Assembly (NCBI GenBank): GCA_963818965.1
Contig: CAWFUG010000009.1
Location: 224,001 to 288,000, forward strand
Direction: 5' to 3'
Length of the DNA stretch: 64,000 nucleotides
Source of the DNA: an uncultured Verrucomicrobiae bacterium
GTDB lineage: Bacteria; Chlamydiota; Chlamydiia; Chlamydiales; Rhabdochlamydiaceae
Below, piece after piece: positions 23,231 to 32,606 of this stretch. How positions within the stretch are numbered: position 1 is the first letter of the stretch; each line of letters starts with the position of its first letter. The position numbers were made by a program, and so were the translations under genes. The notes under the pieces were generated by a model. The model did not search any database. It was not told where the DNA came from and saw only the letters and a program-made list of their open reading frames with translations.

Positions 23231-24253
23231 TTAAAAATCGAAACGCAAATCGGCCGTGAGTCCCTGTAAGATCAGGTCGATGTTATCGGTGCCTGAATCG
23301 TTGGTAAATACCTGAAACTGACTGAACCAGTCTTGGATCTCATAACTTATTTTCAGAGCAAAGTGGGAGCGGTTTTTATCGAAGTTGAAATCCCATCCGA
23401 GTCCCATGGAGGTTTGAAGCAGGAGAGCTCCAAAGTTTCGATTTTTCATCGGTATAGAGGTTTGGGTGTGAAATACATCGGTGAATTCATCTCGAAGTGT
23501 CCAATGACCCCACATAAAGGCACTTGTGAAATTGCCGATCAGACTGAAAACATGTCGGTTGACGTTTCCGAGAATCCATTGCGCATCGATCCCTCCCTTA
23601 GGGCCCCCTCCTCGGAAATTGTTTTTTACAGACTCAGAGCCTGAATATAAGAAGCCGGGAATGCCAAAATTCGGGGTCGACCATTTACCGTGGATCGCTT
23701 GATTGATCCATCCCGCTTTTGCACCAATTATTGGGCGCAAGGATAAGGATTTACTGACCAAGAAGCTCCTGCCTAAATCCCAATCGAACATGTTGTAATG
23801 GATGTTGAAGCTGATTTTCCCCTTTCCAAATGGTTCTAGTAGAGAAAGTCTCGCAGCTAAAAATCCCGACGTGATCGGTCCATTGGCATGAGCTGTGGTC
23901 CGCGTTTGAAACCAGGTATAGGTGATTTGTGTATCCCACTGATCATGGTGCATATTGTAACCGAGACCGACCCTAAAACCTGGGTCCCAACCGAAGGAGA
24001 TGGTTTTAAAAGTGTCCGTTACGAGATTCCCTTTCGCAGTGACTACATCCGCCCAGTCCACTGTTTCGCTGGTGTGCCAATACAGGGCGTTTGCGGAGAT
24101 GACGATACTTTTATCTTGGGTCTGGGGTCGATCGGAGAGGTTCGGTAATCCGCAATCCTTTCTCTTTGTCTGTTCACCCGTAGAACCGGCATAGAGCTTT
24201 ACGCCAACTGACAGGAGAAGAACAACCACTACTTGTATTAAAACATTTGCCAT
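23231..24253 (-). CDS. Lpg1974/MOMP-like outer-membrane porin
   Basis: GFRVGLGY, DQWDTQ, MFDWDLGRSF, LRPIIG; ends LRFDF. Confidence 0.8.
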   Translation of the reverse strand: MANVLIQVVVVLLLSVGVKLYAGSTGEQTKRKDCGLPNLSDRPQTQDKSIVISANALYWHTSETVDWADVVTAKGNLVTDTFKTISFGWDPGFRVGLGYNMHHDQWDTQITYTWFQTRTTAHANGPITSGFLAARLSLLEPFGKGKISFNIHYNMFDWDLGRSFLVSKSLSLRPIIGAKAGWINQAIHGKWSTPNFGIPGFLYSGSESVKNNFRGGGPKGGIDAQWILGNVNRHVFSLIGNFTSAFMWGHWTLRDEFTDVFHTQTSIPMKNRNFGALLLQTSMGLGWDFNFDKNRSHFALKISYEIQDWFSQFQVFTNDSGTDNIDLILQGLTADLRFDF

Positions 24254-24278
24254 TTTGTTTTCTCTTATCTAGATCACG

Positions 24279-25295
24279 TTAAAAATCGAACCGGCAGTTG
24301 AAAGTCAAACCTTGGAGCGTTAAATCGCCATGTAAAGGTACGAGTTGCGAGGTAGGCACTCTGAGTTGATTGAGCCAAAGTTGCATTTCATAACCCAACT
24401 GCGTGGCAAAGTGGGACCTTCCCTTATTAAAATCGACATCCCATCCAATCCCTAAAAATCCTCTGAACATCAGGGCACCTAGCGTCAATCTCTTCATATT
24501 GACTACGACATCTGCTCCGGTGGAGTTCTTATACACGTTAGCGCAGTTCCAAGTGCCCCAGAGCGTCGCAGCGGAAAAATCCCCAAAAAGACTGGGATAG
24601 TGCGTGCCAAAATCGCGCAATTTCCATTTTGTATTCAAACCGCCGAGTGGGCCTACACCCCAAAAGTTATTTTTCGCATACTCTTTGCCTGAATCTGTCG
24701 TGAGGACCTTTGCAATAATCAGATCTTCGTAATGCACATGAATCGGTTGATGGATCCAACCTCCTTTTAGACCGATAAAGGGGCGTAGGGAGAGGCCTTT
24801 GCTCACCCAGTAACTGCGGCCTAATTCCCAGTCGAACATATTGAAAAGAAGGGCCCAACGGATCTTTGCGCGTTGTGCTAAATTGTCGCTTAGGTCTGCT
24901 GCAAAGAACTCAGGATGGATGGTCCCGTTCGTAATAGATATTTGCTTGGTTTGATGAGCCTCTGTTCGAAACCAGGTCCAATAGAGTTGTGTATCCCATT
25001 GATCGTATCGGAAATTGTATCCTGCCCCAACTCGAAAACCAAAATCCCAATCAAAATGGAAATCGGGTGCACCAAAAGAACTGGTGTTATCGCCTACTTT
25101 GAGCAGGTCTGCCCATACCGCTGAAGCTTCCTCTGAAACGAACCAGGCGAGGAAATCAGCAGAGAGATCCCATTTTCCTAAGACGCGTTGTGAAACGTTC
25201 GGTAGGCCGCGGGTTTCTAAAGGAGTCGGTTCTGCTGCATCCACTTGGACCAGTAGCATCAGCACGGCTAGAATGCAGATAATGCGCTTTTTCAT
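24279..25295 (-). CDS. Lpg1974/MOMP-like outer-membrane porin
   Basis: Same motif set; ends CRFDF. Confidence 0.8.
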   Translation of the reverse strand: MKKRIICILAVLMLLVQVDAAEPTPLETRGLPNVSQRVLGKWDLSADFLAWFVSEEASAVWADLLKVGDNTSSFGAPDFHFDWDFGFRVGAGYNFRYDQWDTQLYWTWFRTEAHQTKQISITNGTIHPEFFAADLSDNLAQRAKIRWALLFNMFDWELGRSYWVSKGLSLRPFIGLKGGWIHQPIHVHYEDLIIAKVLTTDSGKEYAKNNFWGVGPLGGLNTKWKLRDFGTHYPSLFGDFSAATLWGTWNCANVYKNSTGADVVVNMKRLTLGALMFRGFLGIGWDVDFNKGRSHFATQLGYEMQLWLNQLRVPTSQLVPLHGDLTLQGLTFNCRFDF

Positions 25296-25311
25296 GTTGG
25301 TTTATATAAAG

Positions 25312-26418
25312 TTAAAAATCAAAGCGAAGCTCAAGGGTCCCTCCTTGCAAGGTCAATTCATTGTCAAATCTTCCAGTGTCAAATGAGTAAAACTGGAGTT
25401 GATCTAACCAAAATTGCATTTCATATCCCAATTGCGTCAAAAAGTGATATTCACCCCTGCAAAAAGTGAGGTCCCAGCCGAATCCCAAGAAGGTCCTCAA
25501 CATAGAGGCTCCGCTGTTGTTGTGGGGAAGTTTCACAGAGACTTCTTGTCCGATGTCGTTTTTATACACATCCTTAAATGTCCAATGTCCATACAGGATT
25601 GCCGCAGAAAGATCTCCCAAAAGGCTTAAAGAATGATTGCCGAGGGCAAGTAAGTTCCACTTCGTGTTAATACCGATGCTGGGTCCCACGCCCCAAAAAT
25701 TATTTTTGATGTTTTCTCTTCCCATCTCAAAGGGTTGATAGACGGGGGGAGCGGGTGGAAGCGTCGGATCGTGCCATTGGGTGTGAATCGATTGGTAGAT
25801 CCAGCCTCCCTTTAGACCTACAAATGGTCGAAGCGATAGCGCCTTGCTAATCCAAAAAGCCCTACCTAATTCCCAGTCGAATATATTGAAATGGATCGTC
25901 CAATCGATGCTCGCCTTTTGATAGGTTAAACCTTTGACTCCAGCACCACTTGCATTATCGACATAGAAATTACCCACAAAGGCAGAATAGACTGAGTTGG
26001 GGACACTGGAGACGTGATCATTCCCTCTCGCATGAAACCGGGTATAATAAAATTGAGTATCCCACTGATCATGCTTCATCCCATAACTGAGACCGACTCG
26101 AAGACCGGCATTCCAATCGAACTTAATGTCCCGTATATCGCAAATTTCGGGGGAGCCGTCACCGCCTGTGATCACTTCCGCCCAGTTTTCAGTCCCGCTT
26201 TCCTGTGCACGCCAAACGAGAAGATCGGCGAAAATGGCAACACTTCTGGAGCTTGGTTTGAATCGAGAGGAGATGTTCGGCAGCCCGTTGCTAGTGTCTT
26301 CTGCTTGCTGAGTGGTTTGCTGTTTTTTCCCTGCAACAAGCCCATAGGAGTGGGCGGTGTTTGCATAGACGACGTTGGCCAGAAGTGCCACCAGTCCGAA
26401 AAAAAAATTCGCTCTCAA
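25312..26418 (-). CDS. Lpg1974/MOMP-like outer-membrane porin
   Basis: Same motif set; ends LRFDF; TTG 26418 preferred (GGAG upstream, clean signal peptide, room for a TTGACG-18-TACGCT promoter). Confidence 0.8.
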   Translation of the reverse strand: MRANFFFGLVALLANVVYANTAHSYGLVAGKKQQTTQQAEDTSNGLPNISSRFKPSSRSVAIFADLLVWRAQESGTENWAEVITGGDGSPEICDIRDIKFDWNAGLRVGLSYGMKHDQWDTQFYYTRFHARGNDHVSSVPNSVYSAFVGNFYVDNASGAGVKGLTYQKASIDWTIHFNIFDWELGRAFWISKALSLRPFVGLKGGWIYQSIHTQWHDPTLPPAPPVYQPFEMGRENIKNNFWGVGPSIGINTKWNLLALGNHSLSLLGDLSAAILYGHWTFKDVYKNDIGQEVSVKLPHNNSGASMLRTFLGFGWDLTFCRGEYHFLTQLGYEMQFWLDQLQFYSFDTGRFDNELTLQGGTLELRFDF

Positions 26419-26558
26419 AGGCAGGCTCCGTTTGTGCTGAGTCAATAGCGTATGAAAAATTTATATTTAACGTCAAGCGGGTTGTGTTGCTTTAAATCCC
26501 CCCTTCTTGGTAAAAATAGCTCTGCTATGAGAAGTCTGTTATAAAACAAGGGTTTACA

Positions 26559-27722: not shown

Positions 27723-27860
27723 GAGGATTGCGAATTTGAGCGGTACATAAAAGCCCCGGGGTTTCACGATCGGAGAGGGAACCTGTATTTCTTCAATACT
27801 GGCCCCCTTTCCGATCGTGAAATCGCGGGAGCTTTCACGCGGCTTAAATTCGCAATCCTC
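27723..27860. repeat. About 140-bp palindromic element (RPE-like)
   Basis: Arms GAGGATTGCGAATTT.AGC, inner TTTCACGATCGGA/TCCGATCGTGAAA, core TGTATTTCTTCAATACT; reverse complement aligns with 53452-53584. Confidence 0.9.
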
Positions 27861-27875
27861 AAACGGGTGGGATAT

Positions 27876-28100
27876 ATGAAAAACATGAATATTTTGCTAA
27901 GCATTTTTTGTTTGTCTCTTGTGTCAAATGCACAGTGTGAAGAGAAAAAACATCCCCAACATCTTGCAGATGACCATGGCGAGCATCATGATCACGGCGA
28001 TGGAGATCATGACGGCCATCACGATGGGGATGAGCATCATGATGGCGATAGGCATCATGACGACGAACATCGTGATGATGATAAACATTGGTATGACTAG
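27876..28100 (+). CDS. Small secreted His/Asp-rich protein
   Basis: Signal peptide then about 15 His in HHDGD-type repeats. Confidence 0.65.
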   Translation: MKNMNILLSIFCLSLVSNAQCEEKKHPQHLADDHGEHHDHGDGDHDGHHDGDEHHDGDRHHDDEHRDDDKHWYD

Positions 28101-28186
28101 TTTTGTAAAGCGCTCTTGGTCTGGAGCTGCGATGACGCATAGATCGATGGGGAACCTGGCAGACCTGTGCTGCCAGGTGGTAATAC

Positions 28187-29890
28187 CTACATCTTTGGCG
28201 GATGACGCCTAGAATCTGCATACTGAAGAATCTTTTCGGCGAATGCATCTTCGAGATTTTCAAAGCTACGGCTCATTTTGACAGCTGCTGGAGCAAAAGA
28301 GACTCCACCCGAGCCCATATGGGTTGTGCAGCGGGCATTCCCCACCTTGCAACCATTTCGATAGAGGGCACCGAGGGTCGGGAAACCATCGTAAGCGACG
28401 GAGCGTCTGCCGACCCAGCGATTCAAAATGCCCTGACTTTCCAATGCATGAATGTCATCAAAAGATAGTTGAATCGCCTTGGTGTCGTAGCCGCAAGCGA
28501 TGGAAACCATTTCGGGCAGCACATCATTGACCATATTGAGCTGTACGAGGTGTCGATTCCGCGCAAAATCTTGATCGATCTTTGGCAGTTGATCCCCATA
28601 AAATGCTTTTGTTCCTGCAACCCCGATAATGAGTCTGTTCTCTTTATATCTCGCTTGCCAGGCCAGAACAATGCCCACCTTATGAACCTCCATGCAATGA
28701 CTGAAATTTTTATATAGCTCTGCTTGCTCGGAAGAGAGGGGGATGTTCAGTGCAAGGGATGGGCCAGCAAATGCTGAATAAGCGGGTTCATCAAAGCCTA
28801 ATTTATTTAGCGTTCCAACGGCCTCTCCAGGGCAGAACACGTAATAAGCGTTATCCTTTACGGAAGAGCCATCGGCAAATTTCAGACCGATGACATTGAG
28901 GTTGGAATCATTATCGAACTCTACAGCTGTAACTTCCCTTTCAAATTCCAATCGAAAACAGTCTTGGATCTCTCCAGAGGCATCCGTATAAGTTCCCATC
29001 TTTTTCTTGAGGTAATCATAAAATTTGGGCAGGAAAACAGGTGTGCTAATACATCCTCCCGGTCGCCATAAGGCGGAACAATCATTCTTCCAATTTAAAC
29101 CTAATGTATCGTCTAATTCAGAGTGGTCTTTGCAAAAATCAGCAAGAGAGGGGTCGATCGCCATGACTTCATCTGGGGTCAAGATCCTGCAGTGATTATA
29201 GCCCAATTCTGTATAAGTCGCCTGCATCCCCAGCGCACGGATCCTGGCATCAGGGACGTCGTAGATAAGATCGATGCGATAGCCATCATGTAACACTATT
29301 TTATCTCTATGGTTGGGTTCGTAGCAGGGATTGTAATTGGAATCTTCCAAGATCCCTTTCAATTCATCATCTCCCTCTTCATAGAGATCTTTCCATAAAT
29401 CCATGCTCATTTTACCGAGCAGCAACAGATTTTTTGTCCGATCTTCATGATTTTCATCATGGGCGTAGAGTTCTACTGCTTCTTTAAATCGAACAGCCGC
29501 TGTTGAGTCATTGACCCCGGGAGCATCATCCACGCGAATTCCACCTGGCTCACTGAATAAAATCCCTAATTTTTCCGTTAATTCTGGGCCACGTGGCACG
29601 ACGGAGAGAATTTCATCAGGCGTCAAGCTGGGGAAAATGTTGAACGCAGTATTTGTTAAGGCATTTCCACTCCCTGAACGGCCATGACCTACGAAGGGAG
29701 AGCTTTTTTCATAAATGACAATCTGAAGTGGGGTACCCTTTTTTACCGCGTCCCTATGCGCGTAATAAGACTCTAACACTCCAGTGATCCCCGCTCCCAC
29801 GATCACAACCTTGTGCTCGGTTACGGGCACTTCACTAGAGAAGAGCAAACTCAGGAAACAGGAAATTATCAATGCAGCAACACTTTTCAT
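28187..29890 (-). CDS. FAD-dependent oxidoreductase (D-amino-acid dehydrogenase-like)
   Basis: VIVGAGITG, IYEK, WVGRRSVAYDGFPTLG, HMGSGG. Confidence 0.75.
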   Translation of the reverse strand: MKSVAALIISCFLSLLFSSEVPVTEHKVVIVGAGITGVLESYYAHRDAVKKGTPLQIVIYEKSSPFVGHGRSGSGNALTNTAFNIFPSLTPDEILSVVPRGPELTEKLGILFSEPGGIRVDDAPGVNDSTAAVRFKEAVELYAHDENHEDRTKNLLLLGKMSMDLWKDLYEEGDDELKGILEDSNYNPCYEPNHRDKIVLHDGYRIDLIYDVPDARIRALGMQATYTELGYNHCRILTPDEVMAIDPSLADFCKDHSELDDTLGLNWKNDCSALWRPGGCISTPVFLPKFYDYLKKKMGTYTDASGEIQDCFRLEFEREVTAVEFDNDSNLNVIGLKFADGSSVKDNAYYVFCPGEAVGTLNKLGFDEPAYSAFAGPSLALNIPLSSEQAELYKNFSHCMEVHKVGIVLAWQARYKENRLIIGVAGTKAFYGDQLPKIDQDFARNRHLVQLNMVNDVLPEMVSIACGYDTKAIQLSFDDIHALESQGILNRWVGRRSVAYDGFPTLGALYRNGCKVGNARCTTHMGSGGVSFAPAAVKMSRSFENLEDAFAEKILQYADSRRHPPKM

Positions 29891-30055
29891 TCGCATACCT
29901 CGTTATAAATCAGCGCGTTGAGAAATCTTTAGTCGGTTCATTCGACCCTGTAGACTTTAAGAATTATGTAAATTTTGCTTCAACTCATTTTCCAAATGAG
30001 CGTAAAAATTTTCTGCGGGGATGGGTGCGTTGTTTCGGTGTAAAAAATTTTAAAA

Positions 30056-30084
30056 TTGCCGGAAAGAAGAAAGCTGTGTATAAT
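30056..30084 (+). promoter_or_regulatory. Sigma70/66-type promoter of the leader-ABC operon
   Basis: TTGCCG-17 nt-TATAAT with an AT-rich upstream tract. Confidence 0.7.
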
Positions 30085-30126
30085 CACGTTTAGTTACAGG
30101 GCAGTCTTTGCCCTAAGAGAGATAAT

Positions 30127-30255
30127 ATGAAACAAGAGCTTAATTCTATTTTTTGCCCCCGTCGAGAACAACTCTCGCGAGCGCAAGCATCAGCTGTTCT
30201 TTCTTCATTCATTCTTTTCGTCTCTCATTCTCATCATCGTCATCATCATTCCTAA
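30127..30255 (+). CDS. Candidate histidine leader (attenuator) peptide, 42 aa (not in ORF track)
   Basis: MKQELNSIFCPRREQLSRAQASAVLSSFILFVSHSHHRHHHS*; six CAT codons in eight positions just before the stop. Confidence 0.65.
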   Translation: MKQELNSIFCPRREQLSRAQASAVLSSFILFVSHSHHRHHHS

Positions 30256-30264
30256 TATTTTTTT

Positions 30265-30306
30265 GTTCGTTGCTCTTTAGCGACGGATGGATTTTCAAAT
30301 TTTTTG
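30265..30306 (+). terminator. Hairpin plus T-rich tract after the leader ORF, possible attenuator
   Basis: GTTCGTTGCT-CTTT-AGCGACGGAT (with G:U pairs) then GGATTTTCAAATTTTTT. Confidence 0.4.
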
Positions 30307-30395
30307 TTAGTTAATTGCGTTTTTTGTTGATTTTCTGTTTTTTACATTACTGTAAAAAACGGGCTTAAACGATTTTAAAAAAAAGGATGTACATT

Positions 30396-31163
30396 ATGAA
30401 GGTATTGAATAAATTTTCGAAGATTTTAGGGAGTTGTTTTCTTTTTTTTGGAAGCCTTGCAGCTGAGGAAACATTCACCGTGGGCACCACTTCTGGATAT
30501 GCCCCCTATGTAAGTCTAGATAGTAAAGGAGAGTATGAGGGCTTTGACATCGATTTAGCAAAATTGGTGGCAGAGAAACTGAATAAAAAACTCGTAATCA
30601 AAGATATGGGAAGCATGCCTAGTCTGATGATCGGACTCAAGCAGAAAAAGGTCGATGCCGTCATCTGGGCTGTCTCGATTACGGAAGAGAGGCAAAAGCA
30701 GATGGAAATGATCTATTACCAGGGGGAAAAGATCACGACCATGCCTCTACTCTTCTGGGGCAAGATCCCTGAAAATATCAAAGGTCCAGAAGATTTAAAA
30801 AATGATCCTAAAAAGATCGTCTGTGTAGAGGCGGGCACCTATCAAGAACAGGTCATGAACACCTATCCCGGTTTAACCCTTAAAAATGTCGACAAAATCA
30901 CCGACGCCCTCATCGAAATCAAATTCGGAAAATCCCTTGCTGTCGCGATCGATAATTCGTTGGTTTCTTTCGTAAAACAGCAAAATCCAGAGGCAAAGGT
31001 TCTCTATTTTCCATTACCGTCTAGCCAGCAGTCTTTAGGGAACGGAATCTGCATCTCTAAGGATAACCAGGTGCTCATAGCTGAGGTTAAAAAGGCCGTA
31101 GAAGAGCTTACCAAAGAAGGGAAAGTTCAAGATTTAGAGAAAAAATGGAACATGGGCGCGTAG
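30396..31163 (+). CDS. Polar amino-acid ABC transporter substrate-binding protein (ArtJ/HisJ-like)
   Basis: VGTTSGYAPY, GFDIDLA, SITEER; signal peptide. Confidence 0.9.
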   Translation: MKVLNKFSKILGSCFLFFGSLAAEETFTVGTTSGYAPYVSLDSKGEYEGFDIDLAKLVAEKLNKKLVIKDMGSMPSLMIGLKQKKVDAVIWAVSITEERQKQMEMIYYQGEKITTMPLLFWGKIPENIKGPEDLKNDPKKIVCVEAGTYQEQVMNTYPGLTLKNVDKITDALIEIKFGKSLAVAIDNSLVSFVKQQNPEAKVLYFPLPSSQQSLGNGICISKDNQVLIAEVKKAVEELTKEGKVQDLEKKWNMGA

Positions 31164-31167
31164 ATTT

Positions 31168-31842
31168 ATGGATACCACTAACTATATTTCGCTTTTAGAG
31201 CGCTCGCTTCCTCTTCTCTTGAAAGGGGTGGTAATGACCGTGCAAATTTTAATCTCCTCAGCCTCTCTCAGCTTGCTATTGGGATTACTATTCGGGATTG
31301 CCTCTTGCAATCGGTTGCGGATTCCGTTGCTCTCCCAGGCAATAGAGTTTTTGACTTTTGTGCTACGAGCCATTCCCTTTTTTGTGCAGCTCCTGCTCGT
31401 CTATTTTGTTTTGCCAGATCTCTTAGGGTTCAATCTCGAACCCTTTCCAGCATCTGTCATCGCATTAGGACTCTGCTCTTCAGGCTATGTGGCTCAAATG
31501 GTGCGTGGCGGACTCAATGGGATTCCCCCAGCCCAGTGGGAGAGCGCCTTTGCTCTGGGGTTAAATATTCCCCAGAGCCTTCAGCACATCATCCTGCCGC
31601 AGATGGGGCGTACTATTCTTCCTCTATTGAACAATGAGCTGGATTCGCTCTTAAAAAGCACGTCGATCGTATCCTCGATCGGAATGTTAGAACTGACTCG
31701 AATGGGAATGAATATCGTTTCCAGAGAGATGCAGCCGGTCGCGATCTATTTGACAGTGGCTTTTTTCTATATCTGCATGTCTGCCTTATTAAACCTAGTC
31801 GCACGAATGCTTGAAAGGAGGCTCACCTATGTTAAAAATTAA
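31168..31842 (+). CDS. Polar amino-acid ABC transporter permease
   Basis: LRAIPFFVQL, QWESAFALG, LLKSTS. Confidence 0.9.
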   Translation: MDTTNYISLLERSLPLLLKGVVMTVQILISSASLSLLLGLLFGIASCNRLRIPLLSQAIEFLTFVLRAIPFFVQLLLVYFVLPDLLGFNLEPFPASVIALGLCSSGYVAQMVRGGLNGIPPAQWESAFALGLNIPQSLQHIILPQMGRTILPLLNNELDSLLKSTSIVSSIGMLELTRMGMNIVSREMQPVAIYLTVAFFYICMSALLNLVARMLERRLTYVKN

Positions 31843-32542
31843 AAACCTATCCTGCACAAAAACGGAAAAGGAAATTCTCAAAAACCTATCTCTAAACATC
31901 CCTAAAAACAGAACAACGCTACTGCTCGGCAAAAGCGGTTCTGGAAAAACGACATTATTGCGGTGCATTGCGCAGTTGGAGACTCACTATCAGGGGGAAA
32001 TATCCTACCAAGATCAGCCCATAAACCAGTTATCTCCCAAACAACGCTGTCAGATCATCGGTTTTATTTCGCAGTCTTTCCCCTTATTTCCTCACATGAA
32101 CATTTTGGACAATTGTGCCAATGCCCTAAGGGTCCTCTTTAGAACCCCAAAAAAAGAAGCTTATACCCAGGTAAGAGAGACCCTGGGCCTGCTCGATATA
32201 GAACAGCTGGCCTCATCCATGCCAAGCCAACTCTCCGGAGGACAGCAGCAGAGAGCTGCGATTGCAAGAGCCTTGGTACTCAATCCCCCCTTTTTACTCT
32301 TCGACGAACCGACATCTGCACTAGATCCAGAAAATGCAGAGCGATTCACGCAGGTCATTCGCAATCTTCAGAAAGGGGGGACCGGCGTGATTATCGCGAG
32401 CCACGATATGAACCTAGCTTCCAAACTCCTAGACACCGTCTATTTTTTGGAAGAGGGATTATTTGCCGAAAGTTATGACGCACAGTCCGGGGAGCCTTTG
32501 TCCAGCGAGAGCAAAATCAATCAGTTTTTATCTGTTTTTTAG
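31829..32542 (+). CDS. Polar amino-acid ABC transporter ATP-binding protein
   Basis: GKSGSGKT, LSGGQQQR, LLFDEPTSALDPE; AGGAGG RBS. Confidence 0.92.
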   Translation: MLKIKNLSCTKTEKEILKNLSLNIPKNRTTLLLGKSGSGKTTLLRCIAQLETHYQGEISYQDQPINQLSPKQRCQIIGFISQSFPLFPHMNILDNCANALRVLFRTPKKEAYTQVRETLGLLDIEQLASSMPSQLSGGQQQRAAIARALVLNPPFLLFDEPTSALDPENAERFTQVIRNLQKGGTGVIIASHDMNLASKLLDTVYFLEEGLFAESYDAQSGEPLSSESKINQFLSVF

Positions 32543-32575
32543 GGAATCAGCTCATATTTCAGATCTACTACATCC

Positions 32576-32606
32576 AAACCAAAAGCGAGTTTATCGCTTT
32601 TGGTTT
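32576..32606 (+). terminator. Intrinsic terminator-like hairpin after the ABC operon
   Basis: 13-bp stem AAACCAAAAGCGA-GTTTA-TCGCTTTTGGTTT. Confidence 0.6.

Follow-up and report, generated by a model that had tools for sequence, protein, structure and literature searches.

A candidate histidine-responsive leader with a terminal His-codon run upstream of an amino-acid importer operon in Chlamydiota

Attenuators built on runs of His codons are textbook regulatory elements, and classical versions of them were reportedly also predicted before transporters in other phyla (Vitreschak et al. 2004). Here we describe a short leader open reading frame (ORF) that ends in a run of His codons and precedes the operon of an amino-acid ATP-binding cassette (ABC) importer in a 64,000-nucleotide (nt) stretch from an uncultured bacterium of the Rhabdochlamydiaceae (GenBank assembly GCA_963818965.1, contig CAWFUG010000009.1, positions 224,001 to 288,000 of the forward strand). 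This whole stretch is termed the window, and coordinates given without a locus name are counted from its first letter; the genome that it belongs to, G000, is of 2.24 Mb and 88% complete. The anatomy, conservation and gene context of the leader make it highly probable that the genes behind it are under histidine-responsive ribosome control of some kind.

In its accessible text PMC9413887 gives RNA attenuators only before the his operons of some Firmicutes, and chlamydiae go unmentioned there (0 matches). In Bordetella pertussis the upstream ORF (uORF) cruR bears an intragenic Rho site and controls an importer (PMC9426467); in Chlamydia trachomatis Rho acts on transcripts with stalled ribosomes (PMC7755916); for the poly-Cys leaders of Actinobacteria Rho was first proposed, and the tested case works by sequestration of the Shine-Dalgarno (SD) sequence (PMC1262725; 10.1101/834739). 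The only cis leader peptide discussed for chlamydiae in the literature searched is an unvalidated trpL (PMC7755916); that search, which covered few subscription papers, returned no description of a His leader in Chlamydiota. Transcription factors are few in chlamydiae, and most of their amino acids come from the host. A leader of this kind would give them a direct gauge of histidine supply.

The His leader and its conservation

The leader is characterized by 42 codons with the end S-H-S-H-H-R-H-H-H-S-stop. Its six His codons are all CAT (at 30226, 30232, 30235, 30241, 30244 and 30247), the last of them one codon before the TAA stop, and 131 nt of U-rich sequence separate this stop from the first ATG of the importer. 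A rule for such leaders (an ATG ORF of 12-60 codons, at most 520 nt upstream, with at least four His among its last ten codons) was run upstream of 1470 long ORFs in G000 and fires for one, the window leader; thus, the His run is above chance. The features of the locus are:

30056..30084 (+): sigma-70/66-type promoter, TTGCCG-17-TATAAT, 10/12 matches; also kept in the his-operon leader copy of the relative G032
30098..30114 (+): small hairpin just 5' of the leader ribosome-binding site (RBS); similar ones in L031, L032, L033 and the G032 his leader
30115..30121 (+): purine-rich leader RBS, read from the sequence
30127..30255 (+): leader ORF with the terminal His run
30190..30255 (+): C/U-rich, G-poor leader segment (C>G bubble), predicted Rho loading site; synonymous bias in 46 leaders, putative Rho utilization (rut) role
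30262..30291 (+): hairpin 3' of the leader stop, then four U and CAAA (folding); predicted weak terminator or pause
30292..30386 (+): spacer rich in U, in which a further hairpin at 30336-30363 is not conserved (sequence and folding)
30387..31163 (+): family 3 amino-acid substrate-binding protein (SBP; PF00497) with no His residue, likely start 30396, predicted to bind histidine (Pfam and comparison)
31168..31842 (+): polar amino-acid ABC permease (PF00528, HEQRo motif; Pfam)
31829..32542 (+): ABC ATPase (PF00005; Pfam)
32576..32606 (+): 13-bp hairpin 3' of the operon, -17.4 by folding, with a poor U tail; probable terminator

Most of the anatomy drawn in the preliminary description of this DNA stands: the promoter, the 42-codon ORF with its His run, the hairpin at 30265-30288, the T-rich stretch before the SBP-permease-ATPase genes and the terminator at the end of the operon are all recovered. 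The -35/-10 pair is kept in eight aligned relatives, and promoter-like matches around it are not enriched (4 vs 5.2 in shuffles). The core hairpin at 30265-30288 is of -10.9 kcal/mol; weak U-A/U-G pairs extend it to 30262-30291 at -12.4 kcal/mol, with UUUUCAAAUUUU directly 3' of it. The leader had also been called unusually long, which was mistaken: with a family range of 14-48 codons its length is unremarkable.

SBP loci were collected from the 30 best matches among 100 relatives and from the top 80 of 316 stretches confirmed in GTDB, where the closest relatives of the window protein are labelled Chlamydiales or Chlamydiota; duplicates (L033, L034, L059, L065, L089), the split L090, the truncated L026 and most of the distant matches were dropped. 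A quick maximum-likelihood tree of 86 SBPs holds a His clade of 74 rows with support 99, 71 of them with upstream DNA and three without. Upstream of the 71 loci there are 46 clear His-run leaders, three weak ones (L039, L054, L087), a TrpR-family gene in 14 and neither in eight; in-frame conservation of the His run upstream of orthologous operons, set as a test beforehand, is thus borne out. The mainly chlamydial subclade has 42 clear and two weak leaders (n=52). Among the 46 clear leaders, 35 place their last His one codon before the stop, 41 use TAA as stop codon, 34 have at least five U within the next 8 nt, and all (46/46) have an SD-like word from a permissive list 5' of a leader ATG. CAT makes up 217 of their 248 His codons, as against 49% genome-wide, and the spacers behind them run from 34-56 nt up to 326 nt. 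In the sister group, with ArtJ-like SBPs, four of five members have leaders ending in an Arg run instead (L021, L022, L023, L025).

An Rfam scan of the window leader gave no credible family (best E 0.29, all below gathering); the His_leader family RF00514 has no match at E<=10 in 29800-30500 and none at gathering score in L148, L176, L175 and L119. Two close relatives, L035 and L036, have a G+C-rich inverted repeat inserted in the spacer 3' of the leader. Elsewhere in the window, a cation-efflux gene lies 3' of the importer operon, and a repetitive Met/Ile-rich ORF at 27919-28212 (+), with a His/Arg-rich antisense frame at 27859-28263 (-) and without Pfam match, overlaps the end of a divergent FAD oxidoreductase. 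Three tandem paralogues of 338-377 amino acids (aa), ending in -RFDF and with an outer-membrane beta-barrel look, lie at 23231-26445 (-).

The link to histidine

The reading of the leader as a histidine leader gains from its occurrence before his biosynthesis operons. In searches for hisD, the gene was found in one of 101 relatives and in three of 400 genomes of the order, and all three of the latter have a purH-his operon (of the type purH-hisI-hisG-hisE-hisD-hisC-hisB-hisH-hisF-hisA) headed by a His-run leader. Two further purH-his operons with a His leader were found by likeness of the leader DNA and are thus not independent of it; all five chlamydial purH-his operons found carry the leader (L146:11499-11630 (-), L166:3210-3299, L167:3262-3384, L170:947-1057, L171:176-289). 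The G032 operon is complete, its genes being Pfam-confirmed (hisE by eye); those of the other genomes are assigned by the purH domain and visible likeness. Over the span between promoter and hairpin, the G032 his leader and that of the window show a mean column identity of 85% in alignment, and a search of 100 relatives gave no match to the window SBP in G032: the cassette therefore moves between importer and biosynthesis genes. The rare chlamydial his operons begin with purH, of 5-aminoimidazole-4-carboxamide ribonucleotide (AICAR) recycling, and in G032 hisC and a HAD phosphatase form one fused gene.

A pattern search further located His leaders before a sodium:solute symporter (L175:1506-1604 (-), G079), and before a gene of the Asp/Glu racemase family accompanied by an unknown gene (L177:1506-1646 (-), G403). 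The strict DNA pattern, run over 301 genomes, has three matches and misses the window leader itself; it is thus no census. A His-run ORF of G044 (L169) lies across the end of a gene on the opposite strand and is excluded from the counts.

In 14 Dependentiae-rich (Babeliales/Dependentiae) sister loci (L071-L090, with the split L090 in addition) the importer is headed not by the leader but by a short gene of the TrpR family (PF01371 in L071, the locus tested), and a 20-bp TGTGCTATCATGATAG-type palindrome over the promoter of this gene is visible in about 11 of 15. This arrangement matches that of HisR regulons with hisXYZ importers; the TrpR-family genes are thus HisR-like and probably represent a HisR regulon, one that is not listed in the accessible text of PMC9413887. 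In the 88% complete G000, hisD, hisG and hisB were not found; this fits histidine auxotrophy, as had been presumed earlier. Neither HisR nor ArgR was found in that genome either. The parallel to ArgR-regulated artJ/glnPQ genes that the preliminary description drew needs correcting, ArgR not having been found in this incomplete genome and the SBP being an ArtJ paralogue with a different pocket.

The combination of an SBP_bac_3 protein, a BPD_transp_1 permease and an ABC ATPase in one operon is the makeup of a family 3 polar amino-acid ABC importer. The window SBP scores 57.8 with the HisJ model, the cut-off of which is 459. Its structure model (predicted local distance difference test 95.5) yields the family fold only, and the ligand is not nameable from it. 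The nearest solved structures are those of Chlamydia ArtJ (PDB 3DEL, 3N26, 3QAX; 29-34% identity, template modelling score up to 0.89), which shares the fold family, whereas the window SBP is a paralogue with a different pocket: W94, E148 and M76, together with a one-residue insertion, recur without exception in the His clade (71 of 71 rows), and Arg/ArtJ-like rows have S/T, Q/E/C and F at these positions. The SBPs behind His leaders contain 11 His in 11,187 residues (0.10%), as against 1.0% in leaderless members of the clade and 1.9% in SBPs behind Arg leaders; the latter in turn are low in Arg (0.9% vs 2.2%). Judged by its regulation and this His avoidance, the window importer is likely to take up histidine, and the leader would point to a likely substrate for a whole clade of SBPs that lack annotation.

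Several observations tell against a histidine assignment. The solved structures nearest to the window SBP are arginine binders; distant family 3 SBPs are His-poor too (0.35%), because of which the His avoidance counts as a supportive line only; the rows of the tree are kin and not independent; and the eight clade loci with neither element lack leader and repressor within 520-700 nt, several of them being internal to longer operons. Set against these, the conservation of the leader, the his operons, the TrpR-family replacement, the His avoidance of the SBPs and the missing hisD, hisG and hisB make histidine very likely as the signal of the leader.

Candidate outputs of the leader

The coding sequence of the leaders shows a pronounced bias at the RNA level. 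Their last 45 nt have a C content of 0.32-0.37 and a G content of 0.07-0.09 (C 12 and G 2 at 30200-30239 in the window); Ser, Leu, Arg, Phe and Cys are encoded by C/U-rich synonyms, with TCY (Y, pyrimidine) used for Ser in 77% vs 34%. Pyrimidines take 309 of 390 four-fold third positions, compared with 56% in the SBP genes, and are higher in 43 of 46 loci. Relative to synonymous resamplings, YC dimers are more frequent in 43/46 leaders, G is rarer in 45/46 and folding is weaker in 40/46. Such synonymous bias indicates selection on the RNA, and the selected stretch corresponds to the footprint of a ribosome stalled at the His codons. No arrest-peptide motif is conserved in the leaders: what they share is the His run and a codon-driven S/F/L bias.

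On balance we lean towards an output by Rho occlusion, in which the stalled ribosome would hide an intragenic Rho loading site. In a cell well supplied with histidine, the ribosome would clear the His codons, terminate one codon on and depart; Rho would then load on the bare, unstructured C/U-rich end of the leader, reach RNA polymerase while it pauses at the hairpin and short U run of the spacer, and end transcription upstream of the importer. Under histidine shortage, the ribosome would be held at the CAU codons with its footprint over the C-rich stretch, Rho could neither load nor pass, and the operon would be transcribed. This model draws on the anatomy and conservation of the leader, its association with histidine genes and its codon bias at the RNA level, as well as on the presence of rho and nusG in G000 and the fact that no hairpin switch is conserved; it presupposes leader translation, stalling, Rho action, a pause and histidine as the ligand. 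Other findings count against it: rho is near-universal (76/76 near-complete relatives) and therefore non-discriminating, and it was not found in the leader-bearing G017 (58% complete); the C-rich stretch measures only about 45-60 nt and contains more U than C; 38 of 50 leaders have a hairpin of at least this strength, -5 kcal/mol, 3' of the stop, and 17/50 pass a loose terminator test; in the nearest subclade the hairpin is conserved with double changes in 3/10 pairs (six sequences), because of which an intrinsic component is possible.

These hairpins could act as weak intrinsic terminators with an imperfect U tail, perhaps aided by NusA/NusG or Rho, with ribosome position setting their efficiency and the sensing of histidine being the same. 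UUUUC directly 3' of 30262-30291, the retention of the hairpin in the his-operon copies as well as in the nearest subclade, and the start of many of the 38 hairpins 4-17 nt 3' of the stop are all in its favour. Against it stand ribosome-constrained folding of the window leader, the hairpin survey of the 50 leaders and duplex tests over 46. With a ribosome on any His codon the window hairpin is still 99-100% formed, its 5' arm being paired to the same extent, and it drops to 84% only once the ribosome sits at the stop, contrary to the logic expected of a biosynthetic operon. Pairing of the His codons with the 3' strand of the hairpin, as proposed in the preliminary description, is not conserved; as antiterminators, His-codon/spacer duplexes are no better than with shuffled spacers (mean z +0.1, 1/46 below -2), and neither the window folding nor the 46 leaders revealed a mutually exclusive antiterminator set by ribosome position. 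Twelve of the 50 leaders are without any hairpin, 33 fail the loose test, and the window hairpin is not called by a terminator scan. Hence, we consider an intrinsic or hybrid output unlikely next to Rho occlusion, and the hairpin looks like a pause or weak terminator rather than a switch.

The remaining explanations place the output after transcription or outside the sensing of histidine. A stalled ribosome might shield the C/U- and U-rich strand from RNase E-type cleavage, or might boost translation of the first gene by re-initiation. Unstructured U-rich spacers are plausible nuclease targets, and the shortness of some spacers of the family (34-56 nt) speaks for this explanation. Re-initiation after leader ORFs is argued for in PMC4833913. 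Yet other spacers are as long as 326 nt, and the bias inside the ORF toward C and YC dimers and against G fits Rho better; we give this explanation a low probability. Translational attenuation as in the mycobacterial poly-Cys leaders, with the free His/pyrimidine tract pairing with the RBS of the first gene, appears still less probable: any purine-rich SD can pair with a pyrimidine tract, and the mechanism was shown for Ms5788A (10.1101/834739), but the duplexes of leaders with their own starts (-7.0 kcal/mol) are no stronger than swapped ones (-7.6 kcal/mol), beating the median swap in 18/46. The window leader/SD duplex likewise ranks at the median of 163 unrelated starts, and in 0/45 cases does SD accessibility rise by >0.2 on ribosome placement. 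Lastly, the ORF might encode a peptide whose His tail binds metal or which works in trans, or the leader might respond to a signal other than histidine; poly-His tails are known to bind metals, and a cation-efflux gene lies 3' of the importer operon. Against this, conservation is confined to the tail of peptides that vary between 14 and 48 codons, RNA-level bias shapes the synonymous sites, leaders of the same design end in Arg, Pro or Phe and precede matching or other genes, and his operons are headed by this cassette; we think it scarcely credible.

Related codon-run leaders and comparison with known systems

When 1382 short intergenic ORFs of G000 are scored by the base composition of the cassette, the window leader comes second, and the top eight also hold codon runs of Pro, upstream of proBAC, and of Phe, upstream of a 329-residue gene, as well as two F-box cassettes. 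The Pro leader (G000:C11:139236-139310 (-), L112) has five Pro codons (..APPPPPFLG-stop) and a U-rich spacer before proB-proA-proC; among 19 proB loci 12 have a clear leader of this type and one a weak one. In G016 an importer operon with an Arg leader stands back to back with a Pro-leader proB. The Phe leader (G000:C11:134777-134884 (-), L112) has five terminal Phe codons and precedes a gene of 329 aa that falls into no known family; four of five loci of this gene have Phe-rich tails (including L142, L143 and L145, and not L141), of which only some lie at the ORF end. Related promoter-SD-leader-U-rich cassettes with Tyr and His tails (G000:C12:63392-63490 (-) and C8:211776-211871 (+); L113, L114) have a strong RBS and precede paralogous F-box ORFs of 123 and 142 aa that are 47% identical; among 101 genomes this pair is seen only in G000, so that its reading relies on anatomy. 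A further short ORF ending ..VVMVALTRT (G000:C8:288557-288652 (+), L117) precedes a BrnQ branched-chain amino-acid transporter and has a C-rich, not U-rich, spacer.

It is conceivable, though we rather doubt it, that environmental chlamydiae and Dependentiae run a whole amino-acid sensing network from one portable cassette with a reprogrammable terminal codon run. As a tentative list, its parts would jointly be a promoter, an RBS, a short ORF with a built-in Rho site, the codon run, the stop and a U-rich pause. Equally speculative is the joint code that it might follow: His for importers, the symporter and the his operons; Arg for the sister importer; Pro for proBAC; Phe for the unknown gene. 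If true, the F-box leaders would tie host-protein-degrading effectors to bacterial amino-acid hunger. The His leader also provides a simple test case for whether a plain codon run with an intragenic Rho site can replace the classical hairpin switch; if it can, the cassette would in addition be a compact reprogrammable amino-acid sensor with a codon tail that predicts the substrate of unknown genes.

What the chlamydial leader has in common with enterobacterial hisL (Rfam RF00514; PMC9413887) is a tandem run of His codons in a short ORF ahead of histidine genes, and the sensing of charged His-tRNA that these would afford. In contrast to hisL, it has no Rfam match, its His run lies at the very end of the ORF, no terminator/antiterminator pair is conserved, it mostly heads an importer operon and its host phylum is Chlamydiota. 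A classical hisL terminator is G+C-rich and has a U tract of 7-8 nt, compared with the four U 3' of the window hairpin and the 17 of 50 leaders that pass the loose terminator test. The leader would thus work in the manner of an attenuator, yet it shows no conserved hairpin switch of the kind that defines hisL. Its geometry resembles that of cruR and of E. coli tnaC and speFL, where a ribosome held near the end of the uORF shields a C-rich Rho site (PMC9426467, PMC12360218); there the stall depends on an arrest peptide and on a free ligand, namely Cu, Trp or ornithine, while the chlamydial leader has a cognate codon run and its Rho action is predicted. The poly-Cys leaders of Actinobacteria likewise combine a cognate codon run beside the stop with the absence of terminator hairpins (PMC1262725; 10.1101/834739); different from these, the chlamydial leaders come with an SD, their coding tract is C/U-rich, and the swap test does not support SD sequestration. 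Finally, HisR regulons with hisXYZ importers (PMC9413887) offer a further likeness, a histidine-controlled family 3 ABC importer that is found in auxotrophs too: they are matched by the Dependentiae sister operons with their TrpR-family gene, whereas at the chlamydial loci the leader ORF takes the place of the repressor.

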